NCBI GenBank assembly: GCA_051362555.1
Contig: CM120641.1
Location: 44,150,401 to 44,214,400, forward strand
Reading direction: 5' to 3'
DNA: 64,000 nucleotides
From: Lingula anatina
Taxonomy: Eukaryota > Animalia > Brachiopoda
Shown here: in pieces, positions 31,459-49,522 of the stretch
Layout of the letters: each line of letters opens with the position of its first letter
How positions within the stretch are numbered: the first letter of the stretch is position 1
Program-made: the position numbers and the translations under genes
The notes under the pieces: generated by a model
What the model was told of the DNA's origin: nothing
The model's database searches: none
What the model saw: only the letters and a program-made list of their open reading frames with translations

Positions 31459-33643
31459 GTTTACAAGGTACACTACAAATTAGATCAATTAATTATCTCA
31501 TTTTCAATTTGATTAGATGATCCAATGCATTACTGTAATACATACCTTCCTCAATCCGATTTTTCTACACTCTGTACCCTTCCACTATGCTCCTGAATTT
31601 AAACTGTCTTGATAGCTGTATACTCATTTGCTGCTTGTCTCAAAGCAAACAAAGACTTAGACAGGATACCACACATCTGATAACACCTAATAGGCGGTAA
31701 CTGTTACTAGTGTAACAATAGCTACAGGAGTAGTGACCTAATAATAGGTGCCAGGCTAACAAAAGAAATTCACAGTTGTTGAATATGTGGTTATGGCTGG
31801 TGGAGTAGGGCATTCTCTAGCTAACATCAGTTGACTGTTAAACCTTACAAATGATTGAGCATGGTTTATAATGTATCTTTATATTATTTTAATTTGTCCC
31901 CATTTCCCATCCTTTATGAGGGACATTACTATACCCATAATGTTCACTTATACTTTTACATTATATTTTATATATTAGGCAGGATTGCATTTTCACTTTT
32001 TAAAACAGCCAAGGTCAAGTAAAATCCAATTAGTTAAGGTTGACGTTCAGTGTAATAGAAAAAATATGAAGTAAGTGAATATGATCACACAAAAAGTAAA
32101 AATACATTATATACTGATATTAAAACCAGTTTCATTATTTTTCATTCAACCCGGCTTTATAAAAAATCACTATATGAATTAGCATAGGTTCCTATAGAAA
32201 TTCCTATAAGATTTCGTATAGGATCCTATAGGAATTTTTGTAATGGTCTGAAAATATATTTAAAATTATATACTGATATTTAGACCAGTTTCATTATTTA
32301 TCATATAACCTGGCCTTATAAAAATTTCCTATATGAATTAGCATAGGATTTCCTATACGTTCCTATAGAAATTCCTATTAGATTTCCTATAGGATCCTAT
32401 AGGAATTTTTGTAATGGTATGAACATAAATAAAAAATAAAAATTATATACTAATATTTAGACTAGATTCATTATTTTAATTCAAGCCGCCCTTATAAAAA
32501 TTCCCTGTATGAATTAGCATAGGATTTCCTATAGGTTCCTATAGAAATTCCTATAAGATTTCCTATAGGATCCTATAGGAATTTTTGTAATGGTCTGAAC
32601 ATAAATTAAAAATTAAAATTATATACTGATATTTAGACCAGATTCATTTTTTTTTTCCATTCAACCCGGCCTTATAAAAATTTCCTATATGAATAAGCAT
32701 AGGATTTCCTATAGGTTCCTATAAGATTTCCTATAGGATCCTATAAGATTTCCTATAGGATCCTATAGGATTTCCTATAGGATCCTATTAGATTTCCTAT
32801 AGGATCCTATAAGATTTTCTATAGGATTTCCTATAGGATCCTATAAGATTTCCTATAGGATCCTATAGGAATTATTGTAAAGGTCTGAACATAAATTTTA
32901 AAAAATAATTTCAGCTTCAATGATTTGGTACAAAAACATTCATAATGATAAAATATTTCTCCATAAAAGATTACTTTACAAATGATCAATTTTTCAAGAT
33001 TTCTTTAAAATAGAAATTAAAGAATTTCTATAGAATCCTATAGATGACTATAAGATTGTGCATTATAAACAATAAAAAGCATTTTTGCTTTAACAGTGAT
33101 ATATAATTGACAATTCCACTGATAAAATTGACCTATATCAAATATCTTTTGTTTAGAATGATATTTGTTTATAAGATATGTATTTTTCTCAAGATTTTAA
33201 CTTACAACAATTTCCTATAGGATCCTATAGGAAATCCTATAGGAAAGGTGCCCTATAGGATCCTATAAGATTTCCTAAAGGATCCTATAGGAATCCTATA
33301 GGATCCTATAGGAAATTTTCGTAAGGGTACAGATGCTATTACAGCTGTCCTTTTGCGGTACTGTGACCAGAACTGTCATGCAGCTCTTGTAAATGTTTCA
33401 CTTCAAACAGAATCATCAAGCCAAGGAGAAGCCAAGGCACCCAACGCCTGTGCCCACTAGTCACCAGTGACACTACTCCACCTCTATACCTGTATTTAGC
33501 TTTATCTACGTTTTGCTAACTCGATCTTGAAGTTGATGGCCAATGCAATGATGCATTTGCCTCGTTTTACCCTCATCCTACAAACCTTTCCCAGCCCCTG
33601 TGACGAGTGCCTTCTTCCCATTAAACTGTATTGAAGTGTCCAT
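3405..33643 (-). CDS. DCXR: L-xylulose reductase / D-erythrulose reductase-like short-chain dehydrogenase, 246 aa; exons 33643-33586, 29409-29312, 28923-28769, 28415-28373, 28216-28052, 5996-5876, 3505-3405
   Basis: Seven GT-AG exons total 741 nt in one frame: [42 protein letters not shown]...LINNAA...IVNVSS...[40 protein letters not shown]...[24 protein letters not shown]. The TGxxxGxG, NNAA, catalytic Ser and YxxxK motifs are intact. Confidence 0.93.
3630..3960. repeat. Old, diverged tandem duplication (~190-bp period) in DCXR intron 6
   Basis: ttaaatctggg...gaaatgctaaaaatatgaataaaaca...aaaacctaattactatttcca recurs as ttaaatcctggg...gaaatgctaataagtatgaataaaaca...aaaacttaatcactctttcca. Confidence 0.6.
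6077..6130. repeat. (CA)n/(GA)n microsatellite
   Basis: Read directly from the sequence. Confidence 0.85.
7024..7161. mobile_element. Small non-autonomous DNA transposon with a 10-bp TSD (MULE-like)
   Basis: The direct repeat agatattgtc flanks it at 7014-7023 and 7162-7171. The interior has inverted ~15-bp subrepeats (atagtccgaaggttcattgg vs ggaccaataaacctt / accagtaaacctttggactat). Confidence 0.7.
7845..8144. mobile_element. PIF/Harbinger-like foldback MITE, 300 bp
   Basis: TAA TSD at 7842-7844 and 8145-8147. The TIR ggccgcattcacatcgagttgagccatggctcta matches its reverse complement, and the arms stay complementary for about 135 bp. Confidence 0.9.
10759..10837. repeat. Compound (TC)n(CA)n microsatellite
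   Basis: Read directly from the sequence. Confidence 0.95.
15730..15944. mobile_element. Harbinger/Tourist-like MITE, copy 1 (second copy at 49523-49736)
   Basis: TAA TSD at 15727-15729 and 15945-15947. Imperfect TIR gactgcattcccatagatt / aatctgtgggaatggggtc. Colinear and highly similar to 49523-49736. Confidence 0.88.
16022..20079 (+). CDS. FkbM/Methyltransf_21-family SAM-dependent methyltransferase with an N-terminal hydrophobic anchor; exons 16022-16798 and 19790-20079 (first coding exon not securely placed; candidate 13314-13335); nested antisense in DCXR intron 5
   Basis: Motifs [12 protein letters not shown] and VIAVEP are present, and IIKLDI|EGYE is completed by a phase-1 intron (G|gttggt ... 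ttccag|AG). A strong acceptor sits at 16021. The segment [15 protein letters not shown] is hydrophobic. Stop at 20077-20079. Confidence 0.88.
19632..19681. repeat. Perfect 19-bp inverted repeat with a 12-nt loop
   Basis: tatttgattgttaccaagt (19632-19650) pairs with acttggtaacaatcaaata (19663-19681). Confidence 0.9.
20899..20960. repeat. (CA)n/(GA)n microsatellite
   Basis: Read directly from the sequence. Confidence 0.85.
24493..24664 (+). ncRNA. HDV-like self-cleaving ribozyme in the RTE 5' UTR
   Basis: Nested double-pseudoknot elements occur in the canonical order. P1 is GGGGTGT (24493-24499) with ACACCCT (24623-24629), including a G1.U wobble. P2 is CCTC (24606-24609) with GAGG (24661-24664). 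P3/L3 is tcc-TCCCCGT-ggt. The P1.1 GG is at 24630-24631. P4 is CTAGGTCC-tagc-GGGCCTAG. J4/2 is G-CTAA-C with the candidate catalytic C at 24656. P3 has one mismatch and P2 is short. Confidence 0.75.
24810..27815 (+). CDS. RTE ORF: apurinic-like endonuclease plus reverse transcriptase, ~1001 aa from the first ATG
   Basis: Endonuclease motifs WNVRT, LGISE, YAPT, GDLNA and SDH. RT motifs [33 protein letters not shown] and FTYLGS. RTE-type C-terminus [13 protein letters not shown]...GKRKRGRPK. No frameshift or premature stop. Confidence 0.95.
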   Translation: MTISDESPPPEVRSAKSDALGPKSILRVGAWNVRTMFETSKTAQVINEMKRYRLDILGISECRWIGSGRLTTNDGSLILYSGHESTHSHGVAIILSREKARTLMEWEPISERIVRARFDSKYCKLTIIQCYAPTNDAEADVKDDWYEQLQVAVSRVPQHDLLLVIGDLNAKVGADNSNSERVMGPHGCGVMNENGEHLVDFCMNNRLVIGGTIFPHKTIHKLTWTSPDGTTTNQINHIIINGKWRKSLKDVRVYRGADANSDHFLVASSIRLKLRKVIPQSQQRKRKQLDISKLKCPRTKTAFVLELKNRFSALAGEDRIEAVNVSQKWDTIKSTYCTTAEAVLGFKKKKNKEWLTPETWKLIDERRILKEKLLNTKSPRLVEQDRAAYKSKDKEVKKSARSDKRAFVEKLASEAEQAAAQGDMGTVYKITKQLSGSHNNNHSAPVKDRNGNTLSTEREQAARWVQHFREVLNHPDPSEPANLTPTDGILDINKDPPTREEVRNAIIAMKNGKASGIDNIHAEMLKADVGMATNLLTDLFSTIWEKDTIPDDWTKGLIVKLPKKGNLHECDNWRGITLLSIPSKIFCRVLLKRIDRAIDSRLREEQAGFWKGRGCIDQIFALRNIIEQCLEWNTPLYINFVDFKKAFDSVHRETLWKILLSYGVPPKITTLISVFYNHFQCSVILDNTLTEWFPMDSGLRQGCILSPILFLVTIDWVMRKTTSDKPRGIQWTLLSQLEDLDFADDLALLSSKHSHLQEKTDRLSSFAAQAGLAISTTKTQVMCINNSTTAPITVSGKPLESVDDFTYLGSLISKDNGAQKDIRARLGKAQSSFARLRTIWKSEQYSLHTKVHLYNSNVKSVLLYGSECWRVTKSDMSRVESFHNRCLRRICCIFWPNKISNHDLYILTGSQSIVGQIKRRRFKWLGHVLRMDENRVPKVALRWTPPGKRKRGRPKTTWCRTMMAELREGDLTWGQAQHVARDRAKWKEVTVALCPTRDEEQ
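28500..28671. mobile_element. Degraded Helentron/HINE-like non-autonomous element end
   Basis: The string aaattttcatcaaaatctgtctacagtttt...ttgctaacagtcaaacacaca...cagacaaatggaaccaaaaacaaccttgtttgccagagtaa resembles the microsatellite-plus-hairpin 3' end of HINE/DINE-type elements. Recognition by eye only. Confidence 0.4.
29585..29972. repeat. Tandem array of ~10-22-bp palindromic units (cctataggatcctataggaaat)
   Basis: Read directly from the sequence; forms the left subterminal region of the 29572-33327 element. Confidence 0.95.
31387..31456. repeat. (TA)n microsatellite inside the foldback element
   Basis: Read directly from the sequence. Confidence 0.95.
32100..32890. repeat. Four tandem ~160-270-bp units, each ending in CCTATAGG palindromes
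   Basis: The unit attatatactgatatt..accag.ttcatt...ggc.ttataaaaa...atgaattagcatagg...ggatcctataggaatttttgtaatggtctgaa starts near 32107, 32266, 32442 and 32618. Confidence 0.9.
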
Positions 33644-34138
33644 CCTCGTAGGTGCTGTGTAAACAAACTAAAGTAGGGCTTGCATTCTAACGAGCGAACT
33701 TTACGAAGCCCCTTGTTGTGAGAGATGGCCCGCCTCTACAAACTAACAGGGAGCCCACTAATAGCTACGTTGCCTAAAATAAATTAGAAGAAGTAGAAAT
33801 CTTTGTATATCGAAAGTGAAAATTTGTATAAGTATCTTTTGAGAGATTAATCTTGCCGGGCGAGTACCATGTTAGGCCTTCTGAGCCATACAATGAGATC
33901 CTAAAACGTCTGCATGTTCTAGGGATTTAACCCTCTACATCAGCTGGAAACATACACAGTGATTTTATTGGTCAATTTATCGTTTAATTTAACCAATCAA
34001 ACTAGCAGGTTACAATCTCTTCTCCGTAACAACATGGAGTCTTAAAAATACAAACTAAGTTCGATCTGTAAAAGTTTGAAGAGAAAAAGACCTATTGCTT
34101 TATTTGTTTTCAACTAGTACACCCCGAAAGAACTGAAG
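33644..34138. promoter_or_regulatory. Bidirectional promoter shared by DCXR (-) and the ankyrin-repeat gene (+), including a likely first non-coding exon ending at 34138
   Basis: Head-to-head arrangement, locally CpG-richer sequence, opposed CCAAT boxes (attgg ~33967, ccaat ~33993) and the donor aag|gtagga at 34138/34139. Confidence 0.6.
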
Positions 34139-34620
34139 GTAGGACATGTCAGCATTCCTGTCTCATAGTGACCATTTTGGTTTATACGTACTTGACAAGT
34201 CAGTGTAAAGTATTTAGATTGTTTGCGTTTGGATTCTCGCTTTATCATCTTAGGAATGTTTTTCCCCAATGATGCTGGTTGCTTGAATTAAACAGAAAGC
34301 CACATATCTATCTTGAATTTTTACACTTTCTCGTTTAAACTTGGGTAATTACGTAATATTGCCCATGGTTTAGGGAAAAATATTTTCATGTTTTAGTGAT
34401 GTCATATTTGCCAATTTTTCAAGACAGCCTCTTCAAAAAATGAGACAAAAGTTGATCCAACTTAATTTTGAGACTCTTAATATTGTCACAGGCACAAAAA
34501 ATGTTACACAGTCAATATGGGAGGTGGGCATGAATGCATAGTCAAATTTTTGGTTCACAGATTTTCCCAAGCAGAGAAATCAACTTGTACAATATATGAA
34601 ATATGGTCATACTGTTATTA

Positions 34621-35066
34621 GCGAGCGCAGACGTCCCTAGGTGGCGTTAGTTGTTCTATTTCGCGAAGCGCCATTAAAACTGTCCCCAGAGTATCAGATT
34701 TCAACCCGCTCTTACAATGCACGGCGTGTCTCAACTACTGCATCGGGAACAACCCTACCTTAACACGTGATAGAGAACAGCTGTTACTTCCTTTTGGGTA
34801 TTGTTTTCGCGATCTACGAGAGGTCAGAAGTGAAAATTTTTAAGGGCAAACTTTTAAACTGATTTATTTTTTGAAGTCGGCAAAGGGCGGCAAGACAAAA
34901 TATATGCCATGTAGAAGAACAAGGACTAAGGTTTCTAACCAACATTTCAGATTTTTGGGCAAATTTGGGCAAATATTTTTTTTGTAATTTATTTCAACGC
35001 CCCCCCCCCCCTCTCGCACACGCTTGTTGACCGCAGCCAGTCGAGGTCAATTTTTACTGCGTACGC
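34621..35066. mobile_element. CpG-rich ~450-bp non-autonomous element with a short TIR and TTA TSD
   Basis: tta-GCGAGCGCAG ... CTGCGTACGC-tta, with a subterminal hairpin ttgacc...ggtcaa. CpG-rich compared with the surrounding intron. Confidence 0.55.
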
Positions 35067-35384
35067 TTAACAAAAATTTTACATCGCTTGCATACATCAG
35101 TTAGAAGTGATAATAACAGAGAAAATCCTGATTGTGATGAGTTTGTTGGGAATCATGGTGAAATGCACTAAAAAGTTAAAGCCTGAGTGGACTTTGACAA
35201 GCTACTTTGACATAATTATTTAACTCTGAGCAGGTGTTTTCATCCGTTTTGCGGCATCAATACATTGAATAATCCTGACTCTTCTTCTTGGTTGTCTGGT
35301 TTGGCAAGGAGTTGTAACTTCTTGGGTTTAGCGTCTCTGACTGATTATAAAGGTCTTAATGGGGCCTTGACAGATTTATTATTG

Positions 35385-35415
<31 letters not shown>

Positions 35416-37318
35416 TTGGTGTGTGTGTGTGTGATTTACGTATGCTGTTTACACATCTTTGCCAAAGACTTCAAATGACCTGGAAGGTGTGAATATTAAG
35501 TCCCTTTTGGAAATTTCTATGTACATGTAGGTATTTGTGTGAAGAACTTTAGATTTAAGTATATGTATATAATTATATTTATATCTAGAACTTTAGGAGA
35601 TGGACGTACATCGAAATAAAATTTAAAAAAATTTTTTGAGGAAGCCAACAAGAGACAATAGGTTATCCATTTTTTTTTTTTTTGATTTACTAATGTTGTT
35701 TTTATATATCTCCGTGCCAAAGACTTAAAACAGCTCAAGTTCCCTTTTAAAACTTACTGTCATTTGTATTGATATATTATATTTACTTTTTATATATGTA
35801 GACTTCTGTAGTATAGTTGAACCAACAGCTTTTTAAAACTAAAATAATCAGTTTTGTGGTGCAAGAATTCCCTATAACAGAGGTTAAATCACATTTGTGT
35901 ATTCTTTACTTAAATTGGTAGACAAATTGGAAGCACAAATATTGTTACAGATAATTCTTATACTTTTTCAATATAATCTTGGATCAGAAAACTCTGTTAA
36001 GTCACATGAATTTAAAAAATTAAGTCTATCATTCATACGTGGCAAGTTAATTTTCAATGATATTTAAGCTTTAAAACATTTATGCATTACTAGTAGGTTT
36101 AAATAGTAGTATCACAGGTGCTACATGTATATAGCTTGATTTATTTTCTTTCAAGCTCACCAGATATTGTTTTCTGACATGAAATATATAATTAAATTTT
36201 GGTTTATACTAATATCAAGACAACTGCTGGAGAGAGAGAATTTTATTACAAACTGCCTTATCAGCATTTATAAGCAGGGGTGATGGAAATATGCATGGGG
36301 GTAACATCCTCAGAAGTGGGGGCATTTTTATTTTTTGCAGGAAGTTTATCATAAAAGAAAATTATGTGCCATGTACATACTATACATATGTGTTCGATAC
36401 TAAGGAGTAAGAGTATATATGCAAGAATAACCTTATGATCCCCAGGGTGTGGGTTGTTCCTAAGTTTGAATGATTGTTTTTTTTCACAATGACAATTTGC
36501 CACTTATACTATTGATTTTGTACTAATACTCATATGTAAGACAACTATTCTGCCAAGAGTTTTAGTCTTGTTGATTAATAAAACCTAAGAAATGTGTATT
36601 TTCTAGCATTTACCGTCAAAAAATCCTTCATTTTGCTTAATTCACATGCACATAACTCTGCTTAGGAAAATGCTAGAACCAAAATTTAAACTTTGGGTTA
36701 ATGCCCAACTTCTGTACTTAATGTGTGCCAAATTTCAAATGTCTGTGACAATATTAAGGGGATGAAAAATGATGGGGGCAACTTTTGTCTCATTTTTGAA
36801 AATGGCGCCTGAAAAAAAGAACAAACATGGTGTTACTAAAACTTGAATAACTTTTGATCTAAATGAGATAGATTAAAAATTCAAATTGATTATTCATACT
36901 CAAATGTGTGGCTATCTGTGCACCAAATTTCAAGTCTCTAGCTCACTTAGAAAAATATCATGTGTGCACCCTACTGTTATACAATGTATTGCTAGGTAAT
37001 TTATATTGTTGACCTAACGTTACAAACTGTTACGATTTGTTTATGTTTGTTATCAGATCTTCCACCATATTGTAAACTCAAAAAGAGTTCCCAATATAGG
37101 CAAGAATGTATTACCAAGAATGTTCAACCAAAATGGTCAACATCAGCTTGGAAAAATAGGTCCTAAAGTCAATTATTCTCACATTTAAGTTTCATGTTTG
37201 GTATTTGTTTACTCCCAAAGGTTTAATCTTTCAATTCCATAGAATTGCAATAAATTATTTAACATGGCTTCAAAAAGAAGTCCGCACAAATACAGCTCAG
37301 AAACAGAAAACAACTAAA

Positions 37319-39287
37319 ATGCAAATTGTACTATACCACTTACTGGTAAGGGTTTCTAATGTCCACTGACCACAGAAGCAAATTATAGTTACTATAGCTT
37401 TAGCTGTAAACACCTGTCTGGGGTAGCGCTAACACTCGCCAATTTAGCCAAGTGCTAAAACTGACTTATATTGGCTAAACAAAAAGGGCTCGATTTGACT
37501 TGTTTTAGTCAAATTATGACCATTTGGATTTATAACAAATTGACAAAAATGTGGTGATTTGGCTAAGCGAAAAAAATTGCTAGCGCTACCCCAGCATGTA
37601 TCTAGCACGGTGTCTAACTATAGCAGCTATATAGTAGTTTACTAGTACTGTAATTGCTCTATTAGACACTTTGCTATAAATTTGGCTTCTGGGGTCAGCA
37701 CCCTTTTGAGACCATATTGCATTTTTGGTAATTAATTCTTGATATATGCTAGTACTTTGCAGTGAGTTTCCAATGTGGTGGATGACTCATAATTTATAAA
37801 CATATTACAGCAGTTTGTAAAGTCACATGTATGTCACCAGTAGAAATTACCTGGCAATATATTTCATTTTATATCACCCTTATACCTAGCAAATGACCTT
37901 TCCCTGTGTTTACCATGTCTGGAGTTGTATTTTTTCCATTTTATTGCACTGTTTTGCACATTATAGTATGACCCTATAAAAGAGGCAAATAAAACAATAA
38001 AAAGATATAAAACAAATTGATACAATGTTTATTAATATTCTCCTAACATTGGCTTAATGGGGAACAAAAGGAAGATGCCAAAAAACAAACAAACAAAAAA
38101 TTGTTCATAGTTAACTCTTACAGAATATTGCTGAATGACCTTGCTGGTTATGTTATGTACATGCAACGAGTCAGCAAGGTTTATGAGATATACAACAGTG
38201 TATAGACAGTAAATCACATGTAGATATCACATAAAGCTTGTCGACAAAAGGTGTAGAGTTAAACCAGGGCAAAGATGGTGGATCTGGCATTCGTGCATGA
38301 TGTATGTGCAACAATCACAATGTTTGGGTCTTTTTCACAGCATCCACCATTGGCATAAGTCAGGGTAGTAAACATGATCGAAATTCAAGACAAACATATT
38401 GACAGACAATACAGAAAATTAGTACGATATTCTGGATATAATTATATCTAAGGTGTATGCAGTTCAGATGTACTGTTAATGATAAAAAATATGCTGTGAA
38501 AACATATGTTAACCATGCATTAGTATCTGTAATGCATACGTCTTTCTTTCATCAAATCTTTGAAAATTATGGTTTTCATTATTTGAACAGGTGCCTGGTC
38601 AGATATCAGTGCCTTATTACAGTTTTGTTTCTCTAATTAGCTGTCCTGGTTGTTTTCTTAAATGGCACTTGAACAAAATAGAAACAGAAAATGAAGTTAT
38701 CAGATTGGACCGTGCTGTTTCTACACACTGCTTAATATTTTTGTTGCTGCTAGAACTTGCCCACAGATGTTATGTGTAAGATGTTAAAGTTTAGTATGGG
38801 TATGATGAAAAACTTGCAATATGCTACAAAAAGGTTTCTTTTGAAGAACAAGTGCATATAGTTGTAATAGCTTATATTTTTAAGATCTTTTTGCTAATTG
38901 TCATTTATCGGCTTTCCGTAAGTCAGAAATGCAAACATAAGATATGTAGTCTTATCTGGACATTAATCTTTTCTTTAAAAATACAACATGTATTCAGTAT
39001 ATTAACATGGAAAAATTGGAAGTAGTTTTATATTGAAATAGATTCAATGAACTGAATGAACTATGTAATATTTAAAATAATAGAGGACTATCTTTCATTT
39101 CAGGCACTGGAAAATGCTGGAGAACTACATCCCCCAGCGTATGGGACCGAGCACACTGTCAGACGTGTGCATGTTTTTCTTCAAACTCGCCTGGCAATCC
39201 AGAATACGCCTCCCAGTCATCCTCACTGTGGTTTTTATGATCCTCGACACTCGTCTGCAGCTCGAGATCAACATCAACATCAACTAA
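37319..39287 (+). CDS. Putative spliced upstream ORF, 131 aa (37319-37345, 38591-38775, 39104-39287); its last 57 codons from ATG 39114 could also be a stand-alone microprotein
   Basis: Canonical junctions CTG|gtaagg, gaacag|GTG, GT|gtaaga and tttcag|G keep one frame open: MQIVLYHLLVPGQISVPYYSFVSLISCPGCFLKWHLNKIETENEVIRLDRAVSTHCLIFLLLLELAHRCYVHWKMLENYIPQRMGPSTLSDVCMFFFKLAWQSRIRLPVILTVVFMILDTRLQLEINININ*. By hand count, 42 of the last 57 codons end in G/C against an AT-rich background. Confidence 0.65.
37366..37698. mobile_element. Nested MITEs: outer element 37366-37698, inner element 37418-37594
   Basis: Outer TIR ctgaccacagaagcaaattatag / ctataaatttggcttctggggtcag. Inner perfect 14-bp TIR ctggggtagcgcta / tagcgctaccccag. 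Confidence 0.7.
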
Positions 39288-39448
39288 ACTTGCTTAAACA
39301 TCAGTGCAATATTTCATATAACTGGACTACAACAGATTCATCTGTGGCCAAAGTAGAATTTTGTAAAAGTTTGGTCTAAAGCTTAAAGACCAGCTTTTGG
39401 TATAAAGTTCTTGTTTGAAACAAGTCCCTATTGCTTCCACGGTTATCC

Positions 39449-39619
39449 ATGCCAACTCCCAAATTATTGGCATCTCTATTGCTCATGTATTCTTACAAAT
39501 GTATTCTATCAAAGTCCTTGATATTTTTCTTTCGGTTGGCTTGGAATGTGAGATTTGAATTTCCCTGCTCTGTCATTTTTGCTACATTTACTATGATTAT
39601 TGGGAGTTATTTGAATTGA
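39449..39619 (+). CDS. Second upstream small ORF (56 aa, or 44 aa from ATG 39485), paralogous to the C-terminal module of the preceding uORF
   Basis: MPTPKLLASLLLMYSYKCILSKSLIFFFRLAWNVRFEFPCSVIFATFTMIIGSYLN* aligns with LSDVCMFFFKLAWQSRIRLP--VILTVVFMILDTRL. Confidence 0.6.
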   Translation: MPTPKLLASLLLMYSYKCILSKSLIFFFRLAWNVRFEFPCSVIFATFTMIIGSYLN

Positions 39620-39782
39620 CCAGGAAAACTCCACAGACAAGCAAAATGTAGCTGTTAAAAGTAACTAGATATTCAATACATTCCGTCCATATTATTATAT
39701 AATTATATAGCAGATAGCATATATTAGCAGTGAATTACCTAAAGCTTTGTAAATATAAGCATAGATTGTATGATTAATCAAC

Positions 39783-42700
39783 ATGAGTCGAGGTATTAAA
39801 GATTTACGGGAACTGATTTGTGTCTCTCGCCTAACGGTGAGACACAGCGACGATGAAATGGATTTCAGTGACGAAGATGGCAGACTGTCCACGGCATTTG
39901 ATGCTTTGTCACTGGGCAGCGGCAGTGTGAGCAGTAGCAGAGAGAGCTCCGCCACATCTGAGAGACGCGCAAGCTCTGGAACAGTCAGTCCTGACTCTGG
40001 CTTCAACACAAATGGTTTATCCCCAGAAATGGGCACAAAAGGGAACGGAGAGAATGCCCCGGGACATTACAGCAGTAGTCACACCAGTGGAGGTGCAAGA
40101 CCTAAATCTAGGAAGAAGAAGAAAAAGAAGACAAAGGCCCTGGATACTTTACCCAGCAGACACGAACTTCCTAAGGCACAGCCTCTTCCACCTGTCAGTG
40201 CTAAAAGAGAAACAAACACAGAACCAGGCTCAGTTGGTAATGTTAGTGATGAGGATATGGAAATAGATGAAGAGTCTACAGAAATAAATGGGGCTAGGAA
40301 TAAAGACCCCCAGCCAGTTAACTTTGATGGGATGCTGGTGTTCATGGATGCAACCGTGGTGGCCGATTGGCTGCATCGCTCAAATGAGGCCGTCACAGAA
40401 CTAACAAATTGGGTCCACAAGGGAGAAAACTTTGTCCAGTTTGCTCACTTCTGGCTGACAGATTTTGATCCTCTTCAGCGACAGAGAATTATGGACATGG
40501 AGTATGGGGTGTTGCTGGATGAACTGACTGTGGCGTTTGCTGCCGGGAAGAAGAACAGGAAGCTCCGTCACTCTGACATAGTGCAGCTCCTTGAGGGAAT
40601 TTTCAGAGAGTATCCCAAGAAGCTAATGAGTTCCAAAGGACCTCACATGTTTCTCGACCATTTAGATGTGCTGACTTCGGAGAGACGGGGCGACTATAAA
40701 GTGCTTCTTGCTGATGTGAAATGTTCAACCAAAAATAAGCAGTTTGCTCAGTGGTTGCTGGCTACAAGGGCATTCTGCTTGGTGAATGTCTGGTCTGCCA
40801 TTGTGTTGTTCTACAGGACCCTGCAGGGCAGGAATGTTAGCCTTCCATTGCCTCCAAACCTTGTCAAACCAAAGGGAGATGTGCATGAAAGGCGCATGTA
40901 CCAGGCAATAAGGTAATGTCTTCCATACTCCAAGGCTGCCAATATTACAGCACTGTAGACCGCTTGTGCAACATGTTACAGTATTATCAATAAAATAACC
41001 CCTGAAACCAAACAAATAGATGTTGAAAAAAATATAGAATAATATGCATAGGAATTTAAACATTTAAGGACTCATTTCCATCAAAACTTTCAGTGTAGAA
41101 TGCCAGCTCCACAGGGACTCTTGCTGAATGCAGTCAGTTTAGCAGATTCTCTTGTTTCCACATACTTGTATAATCACCAGTTTTTCTGTGTTCTATTCAC
41201 TGCCAGGAGGCATGTTAATCTGTTAACTTGATTGCATTCAGTGGTCCCTGCAGATTTGGAATGATCTACATATAAACTGATAGGCTTTTATAATGGCTTA
41301 TGGTCATATTATTATATTGAAATTTAGAACTGAGGCACTGTGCAGTAGTTGAACCTCTGTAATATGCTAACAATAATGCATTTTGCTTGAATTCCATTTT
41401 AATTTTCCCTCACTGAAATGACTTTTTTATTTTTGTCACAGGCATGGCTTCCTAGATGTGGTTCACTACCACATCAGGTCTAAGAAGGTGAACCCCCACT
41501 ACAGGGATGAGCATGACCGCACCTGGCTTTTTATTTCTGTGATATGTAACAAACCCAAGATTCTACAATACTTTATAACTAAGGTAAGGATCATGTTCCT
41601 AGCAGCATAATATGGCTTTAACTATTGTCCTTATCATGTAACAAACTATTAGTTATACATTTAAGCTGGGTTCATGCTAAAATTTTTGAGTCAAAAACAG
41701 TCTAATCTTGCTATATAATCTACTATTTTTCATCAAATTATCCCTTTATTATTATTCCATATGTTGGTCCAAGTAGAATAATTCATATCTCTGATGTGCT
41801 GCTATTCCTCATGGAAGCAATACTTCATTAACTCTGCACAGAAACACCGTCAGCTTGCAGAAATGCTACCAATTTTCACAGTGTGTTTGGCTATTTTTAA
41901 TGATATATCTAGAGTATGTAACAATTTAAAAAGTAAAATTGTATTAGTCCTTTGTGCCAAAGAGATACACTTTGACAAGTTTGGCTGTCAAGATCTAGGA
42001 GCAGTTTTGATTTCTAATACCCAACATGTGATTTGTCCTGCAATCCCATGATTACACATGGCTGTGTTAGAGGCTGAGGACAGACTCTGAACACAGCTAA
42101 CACATTATCACCCAGAAAAAAACTGATGGAATAACGTTGTCCTCAGTTTGTACAAATACTAAATAACAATACCCATACCCATATATCTAGCAATAAGATA
42201 CACCAATGTGTACCGCCAAAGTATACCAATATTTGTCAGTAATATATAACCATATCAATTCATACCAATAAAAAATCATCTGTAGCCAATTCCTTATGAA
42301 ATGTTACATAAGAATTGTTTTGCATGAAATTGCAATAGTAAAAAAAGTGTAATAAATGAAAACTTGTTTGGGTCACTTCAGGTCAAGCTTGACCCCAACC
42401 TCCCATGTGATACTGGCAACACCCCTCTGCATGCTGCAGCCAACTGTGGCAATGTGGACCTAGTGGACCTGCTGCTGAGAGTGCCCACTGTGGAGGTCAA
42501 CCCCATCAATGTCCAGTGTGATCAGTCCACCCCACTGCATCTGGCTGTGATGCACGGTAAGAAGGAGATTGAGATGAGGGGTGTGGGTAGGGGTGGGGGG
42601 GTCAGGAACCCAAGCTCAAGTTGATGTAGTTTAGTTTAATTGAATGCTTATCATGTTTTATTTTGGCTGAGGAAAAAAAAATTTATTCTGGTTTTGCTAA

Positions 42701-45700
42701 AATTATCAAGCTTTTTTTCTAAATAATTGCCTAGAGTGAGTGTTGAGTACAATATTGAGGGGGGGGGGAGGCTTAAAAAAAAAAAACAGGAAAGCAGACT
42801 TGAAAATTATTTGTGGAACACAATCTAGGTGGTAAACTCTTAGAAGGATAAGATTTTAGGCCCAAAAGCTGACTTTAGACAATTTCTTTATAACTGTTCC
42901 ACAGGTCTTTAACCTGGGTGTCTGTGGTCATCAATCCAAAGTATTGATTTTTTTTATATAGATTTAGGGCTAAAGCCAAACTTCCATTATCTTAGTCACC
43001 TTATTGGTGATTTAAATGAATAAGAGAAAAATGTGAAGAAAACTTTTGTTTTAATTAGATACAGACCAGAAATGACATGAAATGCTGTGGGTGTGGCATT
43101 AGATCAGTACAAGATTACAATAAAATTTACATCTATTTAAGTCACTAAAGTTTACAATAGATTCTTTAAAGGTGGATTTTAAGTATTGTTTATCAATTTG
43201 ATACCTTATCTTTACAAGTTAACATGACCAGGTCCCTGTATTTAAATAAAAGTATCTGCTAATGGTTAAGGAGATGCACTTGAATTAGGATTTATCTTCC
43301 TTTATTAAGAGCACCCTTAGTTTTATGATTTACTGTAAATGAGAATTGCATTCTGAGAGTGGAAGTTTGTTTCCAGGAATCTCTGAAACATGGTGTGTGT
43401 AGATTACACCCCAGAAATTTTGTACTTAACACTTTGAGCAATGTTTGCCTTCCCCATATTCTTGTTAATGAATAATTAGAACTATAACTAACACAGGCTG
43501 TTCCTGTCTGATAGAATCATCTGCCATCAGCTGGCTGAATTGATATATAAGTTATTTCTCAAGGGTATTGTTTTTCAGTTCTTCTGTGGTTATTAGATGG
43601 TCTAAACAATATCCTGCCTTCATAAACAAATGGTTATGTAAAAGTTGAAAATATCAGGCAGTAGGAAGCAGAGGGGAGGAAATTAAATTCTTCTTAGACT
43701 GTAAACATAATATCAGATGATACATCCTTATGCCAAGTTCTGTGTGTTCATATTTGATTCTTGTGGATCTGTCCGAAATTCTTACTGCACCACCAGCTTG
43801 CATAGCTGAGGCCCCCATGAGATAAAATGGAATGAGTGTTAATTTGTACAGAATTTTTTAACTACTCTTTAATGAGCACTGCTGTTAAAGTTTTATTTTT
43901 AAATAACAGATTTAAGGAAGCCAACAACAGTTTGGGGTGCAGAGGATGTTCACTGCATCACTTGATGAGGACAGGAAGGAAGGGAAAGTGTCAGTTATAG
44001 AATGGAGAGATCATTTTGTAATGATCGATAGCAGAGCATTCCCTTTGTCACTGGCAAGGCAGGATTGGGAGCTTGTTCTTTAAGCTTAATTTAGTGGCCT
44101 CAGTATTTTTAACTGAGCTTCACAAGACGTGATTTTATGTTGCATCCTCTCTGTGAGTCTTACACTTCCTTTGCTTGCACAGTAACAATGAATGATACAG
44201 CAATTATCAAAGCTGAGTATCTTTGTCCAAGGAAGCAAGTGATCAGATTACGTAAATGATTAAACGATGATTCTTAAATACACTGAAGGAGAATGAGATA
44301 TCATTGTCTGATTTTACTGCTATTCTTGGAAAGTGTCATGTAGTTTGGCAAGTAATAAAAGTATTTGCTTTAACTGTTAAAGCATTGATGTTCTCATACG
44401 GTTACTCATCTGATGTCAAAATGATCCCAGTTATTTATGGAAGTGAATAAAGGTCACATGGACACCAAAGTGACCAACGTGTGGCCTACGTGGGACCTAT
44501 GGTCTCTCCATATAAATTGATATTAAAAATAAAAAAAGCATTGAATGAAATACCAGTCAATAGCACTCGAGGTCTCATGTGTCACAGTTGTGCAAATTTT
44601 AATTTAATTTTGTTTATAAAGGCCATTTGATTTGTCATATAAGACACTGAAATTTTCCTATGTCATCTTTTTATTTTTGAACATATGCTCTACTTACCAA
44701 ATGTGCTAAAAAGCCTTGGTAGTAGTTTTTTCAATACACAATATACAAATTTCATCAATAAGCAGAGCAGAAAAATAAAACAGTAACTAAAATAAATAAA
44801 ACATTTTTTTTTTTTATTGAATATATTAATTGCAGAGATATGTTCATCAGTCTGCTACTGCTGTCTACATTTTGATTGCAGTTAGATTCCTTCCTATTGA
44901 AATGAATGGAATATAAAGTTTATTTATTTATTTATTTATTTATATATTTATTTATATATTTGTTTATTTGTGGAACAGACCTATTTTCAAGCATCTTATT
45001 TATTTCATCATTGGTTAATATAAACAAAAACAGGAAACTGATCAGCATTTCCCTCTGATCAAATTGTGAGTTGGGCAAGTGCTTGCTTCACAGGTTTTAA
45101 CAGTATAGGAACCAGTTCTGGCTTTTTTTTCTTCAATCAAAACATCCTAGGTAAAAAGATGGAATAAAAATGATAACTTGACAAGTGATACACACATTAC
45201 TGTTCATGTTTTACATCTTCCATACTTTTGTCCTTCACTGACGATTGAGAACAGCTGTGGTTATTTTTATGGACCAGCAGGTTGTTTACGGAATTTAATG
45301 TTTTCAAAGGAAAATTTCTCCAATTTGACTAAACTTGAGAAATATATTTACTATAGTTATGAACAGTGTGGGCGGAAGGAGCAACTTCTTTCCGAAAGAA
45401 AGGAAATGGTGTGAAATTCTATCCCTATGGCAGATTAATTTGACAAATTTTTTGCAAGCCAAATGCTAGAAACGTGTATATGCATTATAATGAAAATAGA
45501 AGCATTATTTTTCCATAGTTGTCTTTAATAAGGTGTAAGTACACTGAAGTTGGCAAAAAGGGGAAAAAAGATACAGAAATTCACCAAACCAACTTTGTTT
45601 ACTGTATCTGAAGAGTGCTATTTGTAGTCTTATTTCTGTGATTAGTTGACACAGAAACAAGCAAAAAAAAAGTTGTCCTATCTACTATAATTGAACAGCA

Positions 45701-46308
45701 CTTCTCATAGGTCTATTTGATACTCCAGTCCACATAGAGATTGAATTAACAGGTCACTACAGGACATAACATGACCAGTCCAGCCACTGACCCTGACAGC
45801 AGGGGTTTCTTTTAAAACCAGTCTTAAACAGCACGTGGGGTCATTTAGGTTTATTCCAGTTTTTAATAGAAAAGGACCATGTAGTAATGTATTTTAATCA
45901 AATGTTTCACTTCCTATCACAGGATAAGTTGAGGCTTATTTATATTTTTTCAAAAATAACCATTTTATATTTCCTTGTATTTCCATCAGTATAATACTAG
46001 AAGATTTTACAATGTATACCCACCAAGTATAAAAGTACATACGTGCCAAGAACAACATTATCAATAAGAGATTATACTAGTAAGCTTACTTAAGCCGAGA
46101 ATCAGGACTTGGATATAGCTTAGTTATAAAATCTAATTGGTGGCTGACTGAGGGTAATATTGTCTGGTAAGCCCTCATTAGAGAACTAGTCCAAGGAGGA
46201 GTGAGATTCCCACCTTTTTGATTGAAGATTTATTCAATGGCATTTTCTTCTTAGATATCTGGTATTTGTTTTTACTTCAGCATGAACTTTTTTAGATTTT
46301 TTAACTAC

Positions 46309-46364
<56 letters not shown>

Positions 46365-46663
46365 GGACATTTAACATGGTTAATTTTAATTGGCACATTG
46401 GGTCTTGTAACCCCCCTTAACATTATTACATATTACCCTGCAATGTTAGGCAGTATTTTTGATCAAACACACACTATTGCACTATAATGCAGTATAAGTG
46501 GAGTAATATAATCTGTGTCTGTGTTTCAGGGCACTTCAGGGTGGTGGAGAGACTGCTGGAGGCCGGGGCAGACAGGAAAGCCAGTATGGGAGGACTGACC
46601 CCACTGGACATTGCCACAGATTTTGGACACGATGCCATAGTGAGATTACTGAAATCGACATAA
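39783..46663 (+). CDS. Uncharacterised ankyrin-repeat protein, 526 aa; exons 39783-40912, 41442-41583, 42382-42556, 46530-46663
   Basis: In-frame GT-AG junctions. The N-terminus is disordered and Ser-rich with a poly-Lys NLS-like run. A helical middle domain contains FVQFAHFWLTDF. The C-terminal ankyrin repeats include GNTPLHAAANCGNVDLVDLLL, STPLHLAVMHGHFRVVERLLEAGAD and GLTPLDIATDFGHDAIVRLL. Confidence 0.9.
46311..46364. repeat. (TTA)n microsatellite
   Basis: Read directly from the sequence. Confidence 0.95.
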
Positions 46664-47137
46664 CACATGGCACCATGAGACGTAATCATTAAAATCAATC
46701 ACATTCACAGTGGCCTAAATTGATCAGAATGACAGTGCTGCCAGCCAGACTATGAGCATAAGGGCATAGTGAATAAGGACAGTGGAATAAATGAACAAAT
46801 TTGCTCAAAAAGATGACACACTTTGAAGGTATTGTGTTAAACGATAGGGACAAAACGATGCGAGACGGTTCTAATTACATCAAAACTAGTACAGCAAAAT
46901 AAGGTGAAACTGCTTAGATTAAATCTGTGTCTTGACTTCTTGTGCCTCTCACCACGTTGTCGCACAGGGCATCAGAAAGATGCAAGTGGCTTTTTATAGT
47001 TGTTATCTCACGATGTGCTGACATGCAGAAAGCTATGAGCAAAGTACAGTTTTTTAATGTGAAATGCAAGGTAAACCCGATCAGAGGTGGAGTCATTCAA
47101 ATTGGAGTACATTTTCACTCGTACTTTTAAATAATTT

Positions 47138-47271
47138 TACCCCGAGTTTCTCATTTGCTGCCTGTTGGCTTCTTCGTTTTCAAATCTCGATGTAGTACAT
47201 GCCCACTTTAATGATCTGGAGATTTGAAAATGAGGATGCTACAGAGCACGCGAGATCTGAACCCCAGGGTA
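47138..47271. mobile_element. Small hairpin-forming MITE-like remnant
   Basis: Inner inverted repeat cttcgttttcaaatctc (47172-47188) / gagatttgaaaatgagg (47219-47235), with taccc...gggta ends. Confidence 0.5.
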
Positions 47272-49522
47272 GTTACTGCATGCACTCGGGAACTCCGTGA
47301 TGGCAGAGAAAGGAGTAAAGTTCACTAAGGATGGGTGAGACGTTTTCACTGAAGTTTGAGCATAAACGTCTGCCTTAAATGAGGTGTAGCGTCTGAGGCG
47401 GTGCGGAGGAAGGCCGCCGTAACCCTACAGGTTGACTAGTCAGACGACACTGGTTTTCCGTAATGATGATACCGCCCGGGAATTCTTGGAAGTCCTTAAA
47501 TAGAATGTGCTTTAGTACGTGGAACAACAGTTAGGCCATGATGTGTTAATTTTTTCTCTTTTTTTTAACAGTCTCACACACTCTCTCACACACACACGCA
47601 CATATGCAACATAGGAAAAGTTTTCCAGGATTTTCGAATACTTTGATCTCAACATTAAAATCCAAAATACCGTTTTGTTCTTTCTTGAAAACTGTCGTTA
47701 TTGGGATTTGAGTAATTTGTGGATTAGCTCTAAAATTAAATGCTATAAATTGTGGCTATTTTAACGACATGAGCGTTGTACGTACAGTGTGTGCAGTTTT
47801 ATGACATTGATAGCTTTTTTTCCAAACTTGTGTTGTTTTTGCTCCAATGCAGTAAGAACTCAATTTGGGAGTTGGCCAACACAAGGAGCACCCAAACAGT
47901 TATTATTTTGTCTACATGTACCGTTTGTGTAGAGGATTGTTTATCTTTTGCTGATTTATGCTGTATATTATATTTCAGAATAAACGGATGATTTTAAAAC
48001 CACATTTAAGCATAGTCTGTGTTGAGACTGTTTTGTTTAAATTAAGGACCCTTCGTACTCGTTGGATTGCTACTGGATACAATTGTTTCTGCTCTTTGTG
48101 TACGACTGCTCTTTTGGTCTTTGAGGAGAGGTGCAAGCTGTCTCCCCCTTCACTGTTTTCCCGCCAGTGCTTTCGTCAATGAAAATTTTTGTACTACGGT
48201 TCCTTGGCCAAGAGCCAAAGAATGCAAGGCCAAAATGTCAAGTGCGGAGCGAAAAGAGAGTACCGTGTTTGCTTTTACGTTTAAGAGCACGGGACCCTAC
48301 AGGAAGCTTACAGGAAGGTCTGTTGGACCATGCTTTTAACTGGACGCACCCTTTGATATTTTGTTAAATGTCACGTTTTTAACTGGATACAAGGTTAATG
48401 GTGATACGGAAACATTTTAAAGAGGGTTTTTGATGATTTTAAACGGCAAGGCTCTTGAAAAACTAATTTGAGAGATATAAGATGCGTAATGGTATAATCG
48501 TTACCTTGCAGATGTAGACATTGAAAAGAGCCTGTATATATCGTTTATGTTAGACTTCTGTACCATTGGTCTCGCTTATAGCTTAAAAGTAGGGGGCATT
48601 GATATCATATTCTGTTCATATCTTGTCGGCCACAAGTGGCAATCGCCTGGAAAATGCTTGAAAGAAGTGAACTCAGAAGTCATAAAATCGATCTGTTTTC
48701 AGTTCGGGCACCTTTCCCTAAACACCAGAATACTGAAAGGCTTAAGTACTGTGAATTATCCGATGAACGGATGCAGAAACGATTTATTACGGCGTGTTAA
48801 AGAGCTCTTCAGTGTATTAGATGTGAAGGCCCTCCTCTGTCACTCCCTCCCCTCCTCAATCTCACTCGCTCTCATAATTCAACTCACAATTAGTTATTCA
48901 TTGCTGACGTGATATGCCACGACTTCACAAAATAAAAAAATTGAAAAAAGAACCCATGTCGATAAGCTGGTCATGTCGATAGGCTGGCCTCTCTGAGGAC
49001 GAGCAGGTCTGCTTCAAATCCGCGATAAATGAGATACCATTTGCTATAATTAATGAACTAGTTTACAGCATCAGTCACCCCCCCCCCCCTCCTCGATTCT
49101 TAAATTAAACGGGGCTACAGTTACTGATTTATCATGGATCATATCATGAAGTGTTAGTTTTAAAGTTTAGACTAACTTTCCGTTCTATGTTTTTTTGTTA
49201 AATTCATTTCTGTAACCAAAGGTGTGAAATTTCGAAATGCAAGGAGCAATGCCTGTAGACCTGTAGACCCCGCCCGGTGGCTCTTGGGTACATAGCTATG
49301 ATCTTTTACATGCTTACACGCAAAACGAAAATAACGCGAGTATTTCATTTTTGTTATTTGTTTATTTGCGAATCTTGTAAATTGTGGTGAATGAATTTTC
49401 TGATCATTAATCGAGAGTTTCCAATCGGTATGAGCATTTTTCTGATTTTTGTAATACTTGGTAAAACTGAATTTAAAAAAAATCGCGGAAATGCAAATGT
49501 GCTGCCTGGAAGTGGTGTTATA

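Follow-up and report, generated by a model that had tools for sequence, protein, structure and literature searches.

What does an animal gene do with two small open reading frames (ORFs) ahead of its own start codon, when both encode similar hydrophobic peptides? The question is raised by a locus in a 64,000-nucleotide (nt) stretch of the brachiopod Lingula anatina (assembly GCA_051362555.1, contig CM120641.1, positions 44,150,401 to 44,214,400), which is called the window below and to which positions refer. In our reading, held with considerable confidence, the locus is the likely orthologue of the bicistronic locus SMIM10L3-FAM220A: a SMIM10 ORF (ORF1), a diverged second copy of it (ORF2) and a FAM220-ankyrin coding sequence (CDS) would share one messenger RNA (mRNA), from which the SMIM10 peptide would be made first and the FAM220-ankyrin protein by weak reinitiation or leaky scanning. 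The bicistronic system itself is known from mammals; what is new is the probably ancient linkage and the doubled, partly eroded upstream ORF (uORF). The exon structure, the identities of the two families and their conserved order are direct observations. The features are as follows.

34030 to 34138, plus strand: exon 1, with an exact 3' end (splice joint) and an approximate 5' end (bin depth only), non-coding save for a possible three-codon ORF at 34034.
37319 to 37345 and 38591 to 38775 (within 37319 to 38775), plus strand: upstream "exons" of a preliminary description of this DNA, intronic in the observed mRNA and outside the unit.
39104 to 40912, plus strand: exon 2, which carries ORF1, ORF2 and codons 1 to 376 of FAM220-ankyrin; bounded on either side by RNA joints in four of four runs.
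39114 to 39287, plus strand: ORF1, a SMIM10-family (DUF4560) microprotein of 57 amino acids (aa), predicted to be helix-break-helix, from PF15118 and a structure model.
39449 to 39619, plus strand: ORF2, a diverged SMIM10-like copy of 56 aa that lacks the C-terminal signature and opens with the first ATG past the ORF1 stop.
39783 to 40912, plus strand: first part of the FAM220-ankyrin CDS, with a conserved N-terminal motif, a low-complexity linker and the FAM220 domain (PF15487).
41442 to 41583, plus strand: exon 3, coding, where the ankyrin region begins; RNA joints in four of four runs.
42382 to 42556, plus strand: exon 4, coding, ankyrin repeats; RNA joints in four of four runs.
46530 to 47990, plus strand: exon 5, with the CDS end at 46663 and then the 3' untranslated region (UTR) to about 48000 (end approximate), from a joint and depth.

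Are the three ORFs transcribed together? Four of nine available short-read RNA runs of the same species (X1, X4, X7 and X9, of which X1 is stranded) were aligned on window positions 32000-48500. The joint 34138 to 39104, with GT..AG borders, is present in all four (X1 33 reads and 24 more in a second form of the join, X4 2, X7 18, X9 17). So are the joints 40912 to 41442 (X1 34, X4 11, X7 9, X9 12 reads), 41583 to 42382 (X1 48, X4 4, X7 8, X9 12) and 42556 to 46530 (X1 44, X4 3, X7 9, X9 11). Over the four runs the first junction has 94 reads and the three coding junctions 66, 72 and 67. Thus transcripts that begin with exon 1 are enough for all FAM220 mRNA seen, and an internal promoter is unnecessary. 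In X1 the depth is 35 in the leader bin and then 53 and 43 in the CDS bins (three bins spanning 39163-40815), on the plus strand only. The preliminary description had placed all the ORFs in the exon 39104-40912, and the RNA bears this out, with joints at both ends and none inside among those listed in the four runs. It was also right that the signal AATAAA is absent between ORF1 and the main ATG: none lies in 39104-39783, and the first one downstream is at 40283. Variant poly(A) hexamers before the main ATG are TATAAA at 39401, AATACA at 39675 and AATATA at 39752.

The proposed upstream extension of ORF1 across two introns to 131 aa (37319-37345, 38591-38775 and 39104-39287) has to be given up, as it assembles on paper only. 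No such joint is listed in the four runs, the depth in 38061-38611 is zero in all of them, and the true donor is at 34138. Since the true join puts a TGA in frame with ORF1, four codons ahead of the ATG at 39114, ORF1 is 57 aa long. On the other strand, a divergent gene shares the promoter region; it is seen as a CT..AC joint at window 33772-33867 and upstream (2 reads in X1, 4 in X4), about 170 nt from the first exon of FAM220.

What does the main CDS encode? It matches Pfam FAM220 (PF15487) with 200 bits over profile positions 1-271 of 271, the cut-off being 27 bits, and its FAM220 domain is 37% identical to gecko XP_060116859.1 (E 2e-33). The spliced CDS has 526 aa, three of which differ from the protein P0001, that is, L. 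anatina LOC106172316, which has FAM220 followed by C-terminal ankyrin repeats. An "uncharacterised ankyrin gene" was thus half of the truth: the ankyrins are there, at the C-terminus, and the gene belongs to the FAM220 family. The domain search gave 72 homologues among 497 candidates, the named ones being from molluscs, an annelid and the gecko; no human sequence was among its results. Several homologues are named "SIPAR domain-containing" in UniRef, and the start motif of the ATG at 39783 also opens most of the 72. The first 17 or so residues (window 39783-39840) are strongly conserved in the invertebrate homologues; between them and the FAM220 core is a linker of variable, acidic/basic sequence that includes a run of lysines. 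Judged by sequence, this region might contain a binding motif and a nuclear signal. The gecko FAM220-ankyrin proteins P0197 and P0070 (XP_060116858.1 and XP_060116859.1; isoform X1 has both FAM220 and ankyrins) bear the annotation "salivary gland specific protein SAGSIN1", which is the name of the uORF. This is a naming swap typical of bicistronic loci, and it indicates that the ankyrin tail is present in the vertebrate locus too.

What are the two small ORFs? ORF1 matches Pfam DUF4560 (PF15118), which we take to be the SMIM10 family, with 31.8 bits (E 1.4e-7, profile positions 27-64 of 64), above the gathering cut-off of 27 bits, and it scores 84.0 bits against a profile of 110 relatives. The relatives come from a HMMER search that gave 115 proteins, from which P0137 and P0154 were dropped as unrelated repeats, while P0073, P0086 and P0095, with two units each, were kept out of the profile. 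A word-index search with ORF1 alone gave zero candidates and the ESM Atlas no usable match. ORF1 is among the 104 of 120 sequences that carry the C-terminal signature D/N-x-R-x-Q/R/E-x-E. Its model has predicted helices at residues 14-28 and 32-56, with a mean predicted local distance difference test (pLDDT) of 77.5 and a predicted template modelling score (pTM) of 0.36. The ATG of ORF1 is the first after the splice junction, ten bases past it, and has A at -3; third positions of its codons are G or C in 42 of 57. This early start, its context and the strong third-position bias suggest that ORF1 is the main product of the leader.

The nearest relatives of ORF1 are named spider and insect proteins, and closest of all are two spider proteins that are nearly tailless. 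Many SMIM10-like proteins (in the range P0074-P0187) have long acidic tails, the named ones being from insects (cricket, leafhopper, spittlebug and planthopper). Possession of an acidic tail may correlate with a lost link to FAM220. The idea that ORF1 and ORF2 represent two ancient subfamilies was set aside, with the nearest relatives of ORF1 in spiders and insects and a tree too weak to decide. P0194, a candidate fusion, was rejected as a PAP2 protein wrongly clustered with P0149.

ORF2 scores 22.9 bits against PF15118 (E 7.8e-5), under the 27-bit gathering cut-off, and 29.1 bits (E 1.1e-7) against the 110-sequence profile, over positions 11-37 of 54 only; its homology is clear. The likeness of the two peptides, 57 and 56 aa long, is as real as it had been claimed to be: the local alignment scores 60, which none of 5000 shuffles equals (maximum 48), with 27% identity. 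Their DNA has diverged, as also claimed. No likeness above 17.5 bits is found between the two leader halves by blastn, and the third-position G/C of ORF2 is 21 of 56, at background. The ATG of ORF2 has T at -3. The C-terminal pattern is missing from it, a strict pattern which some clear members also miss (for example the near ORF of the comparison locus L005, described below). A frameshift that hides the C-terminus of ORF2 was considered and rejected, as no shifted frame scores on the C-terminal half of the profile. By their sequences, ORF1 is a full member of the family and ORF2 an eroded one, and the two peptides are not equals. A third copy was not found anywhere in the 64-kb window at E < 1 with the 110-sequence profile. 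From the ORF1 stop to the ORF2 ATG there are 161 nt, and from the ORF2 stop to the main ATG 163 nt. These matching gaps (66-167 nt in other loci) suggest that ORF2 probably arose long ago, when the uORF was duplicated in tandem together with its spacer.

How old is the arrangement? For comparison, metagenome contigs were scanned with a FAM220 alignment, and eight loci were obtained from 170 candidate stretches. A DUF4560 ORF of 53-62 aa stands ahead of FAM220 in four of these eight other animal loci, with scores of 42.3 bits in L001, 37.3 in L002, 37.9 in L004 and 33.7 in L005, and it ends 86, 66, 167 and 136 nt, respectively, before the FAM220 ATG. The uORF of L004 is identical to P0107, which is part of the 110-sequence profile, and the score of L004 there is not independent. 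In L006 (79 nt) and L007 (152 nt) the leader is too short to test for a SMIM10 ORF. Between ORF1 and the four uORFs 27-33 of 40 second codon positions are identical and 13-17 of 40 third positions, and this excess of second-position agreement indicates a coding-frame pattern in ORF1 and the uORFs. Contig sizes give further, indirect support. Among 36 SMIM10-like clusters with a stated contig size, four share that size with one of the 72 FAM220 proteins, as matched by eye: 49206 (P0113/P0015), 1486869 (P0109/P0016), 1651 (P0108/P0060) and 2374 (P0123/P0006). The last pair lies on a 2374-nt Logan contig, where the FAM220 protein is spliced and includes ankyrin exons. Of the two matches at short sizes, one might have arisen by chance. 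On these sequence comparisons, the SMIM10-FAM220 pairing likely predates the protostome-deuterostome split. No description of it in invertebrates was found in the literature searched, which covered few subscription journals. The polycistronic reading of the preliminary description is supported by plus-strand transcription of exon 2 from ORF1 into the CDS, by the same layout in four of eight loci and by a bicistronic human counterpart.

Second copies are also seen elsewhere. L005 has a second SMIM10-like frame at its positions 663-824, with 18.7 bits (E 2e-4), while the best other of 4445 frames has 6.0. This frame is degenerate and lies directly behind an acceptor-like site, 316 nt ahead of the intact uORF; in the window the order is the opposite, with the worn copy behind. 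No second copy was found in L001, L002 or L004 within 1.6-2.7 kb of DNA. In three ENA proteins (P0073, P0086 and P0095) a SMIM10-like unit that is shorter or weaker precedes another in the same frame; gene calling may have joined them artificially.

There is a further question of concern, what has become of ORF2? One answer, to which we would give an even chance, is that ORF2 is a duplicate in decay: its peptide would have lost its importance, and at most the frame would act in cis as an extra uORF. This answer is compatible with orthology to SMIM10L3-FAM220A, and differs from the next one in the fate of ORF2 only. It accounts for a profile match that has lost its C-terminal half, for the long branch of ORF2 in a weak tree and for its weak start context. 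It also fits the residue-changing differences among RNAs of the same species. Among the RNA differences listed, two of three in ORF2 alter the amino acid, whereas in the FAM220 CDS 2 of 14 do, which is a hint only, and one of the two changes in ORF2 gives a residue found elsewhere in the SMIM10 family. What speaks for selection is that the third positions of ORF1 and ORF2 agree in 13 of 34 and look saturated, yet the frame is intact, which is hard to keep for long in a sequence that is not selected.

The other answer is that the mRNA is tricistronic and ORF2 encodes a second, functionally distinct SMIM10 microprotein, selected for its own product. We find this less probable, though well worth weighing. 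ORF2 is a stop-free ORF of 56 codons with an ATG; when the gap was shuffled 2000 times, an ORF as long arose 141 times. Its sole indel relative to ORF1 is two codons long and in frame, and among the RNA differences listed in it there is no stop and no frameshift. Its likeness to five uORFs is higher at codon positions 2 (14-18 of 20) than at positions 3 (5-9 of 20), in protein-anchored blocks that bias the comparison upward. The second frame of L005 and the two-unit proteins P0073, P0086 and P0095 point the same way. These points are set against the score under the Pfam cut-off, the missing C-terminal motif that 104 of 120 sequences match, the T at -3 with background third-position G/C, the residue changes (two of three, compared with 2 of 14 in the FAM220 CDS, among differences listed) and the single copy in L001, L002 and L004 within the DNA searched. 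A wider version would trace the SMIM10-FAM220-ankyrin mRNA back to the last bilaterian ancestor or earlier, with the microprotein cistron duplicated more than once (in Lingula, in L005 and perhaps in P0073 and P0095) into tricistronic mRNAs, where the second copy would be a distinct selected membrane microprotein made by serial reinitiation. We regard this wider version as rather unlikely.

Might the products be partners? The preliminary description had suggested an operon-like unit, in which small membrane peptides are partners of the ankyrin protein or control its translation. Under the first option, the SMIM10 peptides would bind the FAM220-ankyrin protein and the shared mRNA would keep their co-expression. 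This option is improbable, and it finds no support beyond shared transcription. It would suit a linkage kept from brachiopod to human, and ankyrin repeats are protein-binding modules. A complex prediction of P0001 with ORF1, in which alignments were not used, scored 0.00 and bears neither for nor against binding. Insect SMIM10-like proteins with acidic tails are on short contigs that have no matching FAM220 contig size. The title of the study by Ueda et al. in 2009 reportedly calls the two mouse products acrosomal and salivary-gland-specific. In the part of a review available to us SIPAR is placed with STAT3 and the phosphatase TC45, in STAT3 dephosphorylation, whereas human SMIM10 is cited, second-hand, as mitochondrial. 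The two products of the comparable STREMI-SLC35A4 mRNA are described as having no direct interdependence in the part of PMC13303939 at hand. Most likely, then, the SMIM10 and FAM220-ankyrin products are co-transcribed but independent proteins, not an obligate complex.

How would such an mRNA be translated, if it is indeed the orthologue of SMIM10L3-FAM220A? Ribosomes would scan a leader of about 790 nt (with the start assumed at 34030) and meet ORF1 ten bases past the junction. ORF1 would be translated first, into a hydrophobic microprotein with two predicted helices. Some ribosomes would then reinitiate at ORF2, and fewer at FAM220-ankyrin, past seven ATGs. In this way ORF1 would likely act both as a cistron of its own and as a brake on FAM220-ankyrin output, and ORF2 would catch reinitiating ribosomes and lower that output further. 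By analogy, stress-dependent relief of the brake would be a possibility, as such relief is reported for STREMI-SLC35A4 in the part of PMC13303939 at hand.

Several points that weigh against the proposed orthology and its single mRNA should be noticed. Seven ATGs lie between the ORF1 stop and the ATG at 39783, which makes reinitiation there hard. The single-molecule linkage of ORF1 and the FAM220 CDS is beyond the reach of short reads, and depth and junction counts are compatible with one mRNA without proving it. In X4 the first junction is covered by fewer reads than the coding junctions. Over all runs its slight surplus would allow for a minor short isoform, and in X1 alone read starts pile up at 39482 (8 of 30), next to two allele differences. 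The search for frame-conserved homologues upstream of orthologous genes, proposed in the preliminary description, succeeded in the four loci named above (with a single copy in L001, L002 and L004) and failed in two: no SMIM10 ORF is found upstream of FAM220 in L003 (348 nt searched) or in L008 (667 nt, start uncertain). The best 19-residue hydropathy of ORF1, 1.47, is low for a helix that spans a membrane. A tree of 48 columns, itself weakly supported, does not place ORF1 and ORF2 as sisters, and ORF1 is only 29th of 119 in similarity to ORF2; neither result supports a simple recent duplication, and the copies either separated long ago or differ greatly in their rates of evolution. Lastly, orthology to vertebrate FAM220A, which we consider likely, stands on domain likeness and shared layout rather than on synteny or a FAM220 tree. 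The weakest alternative has two transcripts, a short one for SMIM10 and another for FAM220 that starts internally. It could appeal to an X1 depth that is lower in the leader (35) than in the CDS (43-53), to the pile at 39482 and to the variant hexamers in the gap, but it is very improbable given first-junction reads equal to or above coding-junction reads in three of four runs, no molecule end in the gap among those listed, no AATAAA there and a human counterpart that is bicistronic in 79 of 82 long reads (from the part of PMC13303939 at hand).

The window holds other elements outside this unit. The minus strand has a 1051-codon open frame at 24660-27815, presumably an intact endonuclease and reverse transcriptase of a long interspersed nuclear element (LINE) retrotransposon, to go by its motifs. 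A 315-codon open frame at 15955-16902 on the same strand has what we take to be an S-adenosylmethionine (SAM) methyltransferase-like, FkbM-like motif. At 37417-37596 and 41112-41243 there are short intronic repeats, to which numerous reads of other origin align in either orientation, with loose ends and joints on the opposite strand; reads near the former look repeat-like. These repeats are likely dispersed elements resembling miniature inverted-repeat transposable elements (MITEs). A low-complexity array of short, partly self-complementary units at 32500-33330 gives back-running joints in reads.

Then why does the locus matter? If a SMIM10 uORF and FAM220 are likely on one transcript from brachiopod to human, the human bicistronic locus would date to early animal evolution, and something must have favoured the link over that time, most likely control of FAM220 translation in cis. 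Human FAM220A is shorter, and the invertebrate protein, which bears ankyrins and a conserved N-terminal motif, may be the better guide to the ancestral role. With its two uORFs, the locus also offers a natural test of the extent to which ribosomes can reinitiate in series. There is also a correction for annotation, for the uORFs are missing from gene annotation of the LOC106172316 type, as far as protein searches show.

How does the Lingula unit compare with known systems? Drosophila tarsal-less/polished rice makes several near-identical, very short peptides from a polycistronic RNA that has no long downstream CDS. It resembles the Lingula unit in having more than one related small ORF per RNA; the Lingula ORFs are 57 and 56 aa long, only 27% identical and followed by a CDS of 526 aa, and they do not form an array of that type. 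Within the SMIM10 family (SMIM10, SMIM10L1, SMIM10L2A/B and the arthropod acidic-tail forms), ORF1 has the hydrophobic F-F-x-L-A-W...P core and a C-terminal D-x-R-x-Q-x-E-I-N; it differs in having no acidic tail, and ORF2 in having no C-terminal signature. MIURF-MIEF1, PYURF-PIGY, ASDURF-ASNSD1 and STREMI-SLC35A4 are alike in placing a conserved leader microprotein ORF before an unrelated CDS, where it is likely both a cistron and a translational control (PMC13303939, in part). Their sequences are unrelated to SMIM10-FAM220. STREMI-SLC35A4 moreover arose in jawed vertebrates, according to the same part of that source, whereas the SMIM10-FAM220 pairing is common to brachiopod and mammals.

The closest system is the mammalian locus itself, and the unit is therefore not "undescribed" as had been thought. 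In the part of PMC12807706 (HGNC, 2026) available to us, SMIM10L3 (originally SAGSIN1) is placed within the FAM220A 5' UTR in human and mouse, and the nesting is traced through its reference list to Ueda et al. 2009 (PMID 19659802). The HGNC identifiers for SMIM10L3 and FAM220A (Acpin1, SIPAR) are HGNC:56768 and HGNC:22422. Dataset EV1 of PMC13303939 has FAM220A/SMIM10L3 as a candidate bicistronic transcript, ENST00000313324.9, positive in 79 of 82 long reads, with both ORFs positive in ribosome profiling (Ribo-seq); the two names occur in that dataset only among the 11 supplementary files searched. PhyloCSF there is 31.1 for the human uORF and -23.2 for FAM220A, and the uORF stops about 60 nt ahead of the FAM220A ORF. 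PMC6032216 and PMC10641680 were consulted in part for further background. Lingula differs from this locus in having two SMIM10-like ORFs where human and mouse have one, in the 495 nt and seven ATGs between ORF1 and the main start, in a uORF that is intronless within exon 2 where the human one spans an intron, and in a main protein with ankyrin repeats, as in the gecko, while the human ORF is 780 nt long (human values from the same partial sources). What the two share is a DUF4560 uORF before a FAM220 CDS on the same strand, in a transcribed leader, as the Lingula exon 39104-40912 has it, and the gap is short in human (about 60 nt) as in the four comparison loci (66-167 nt).

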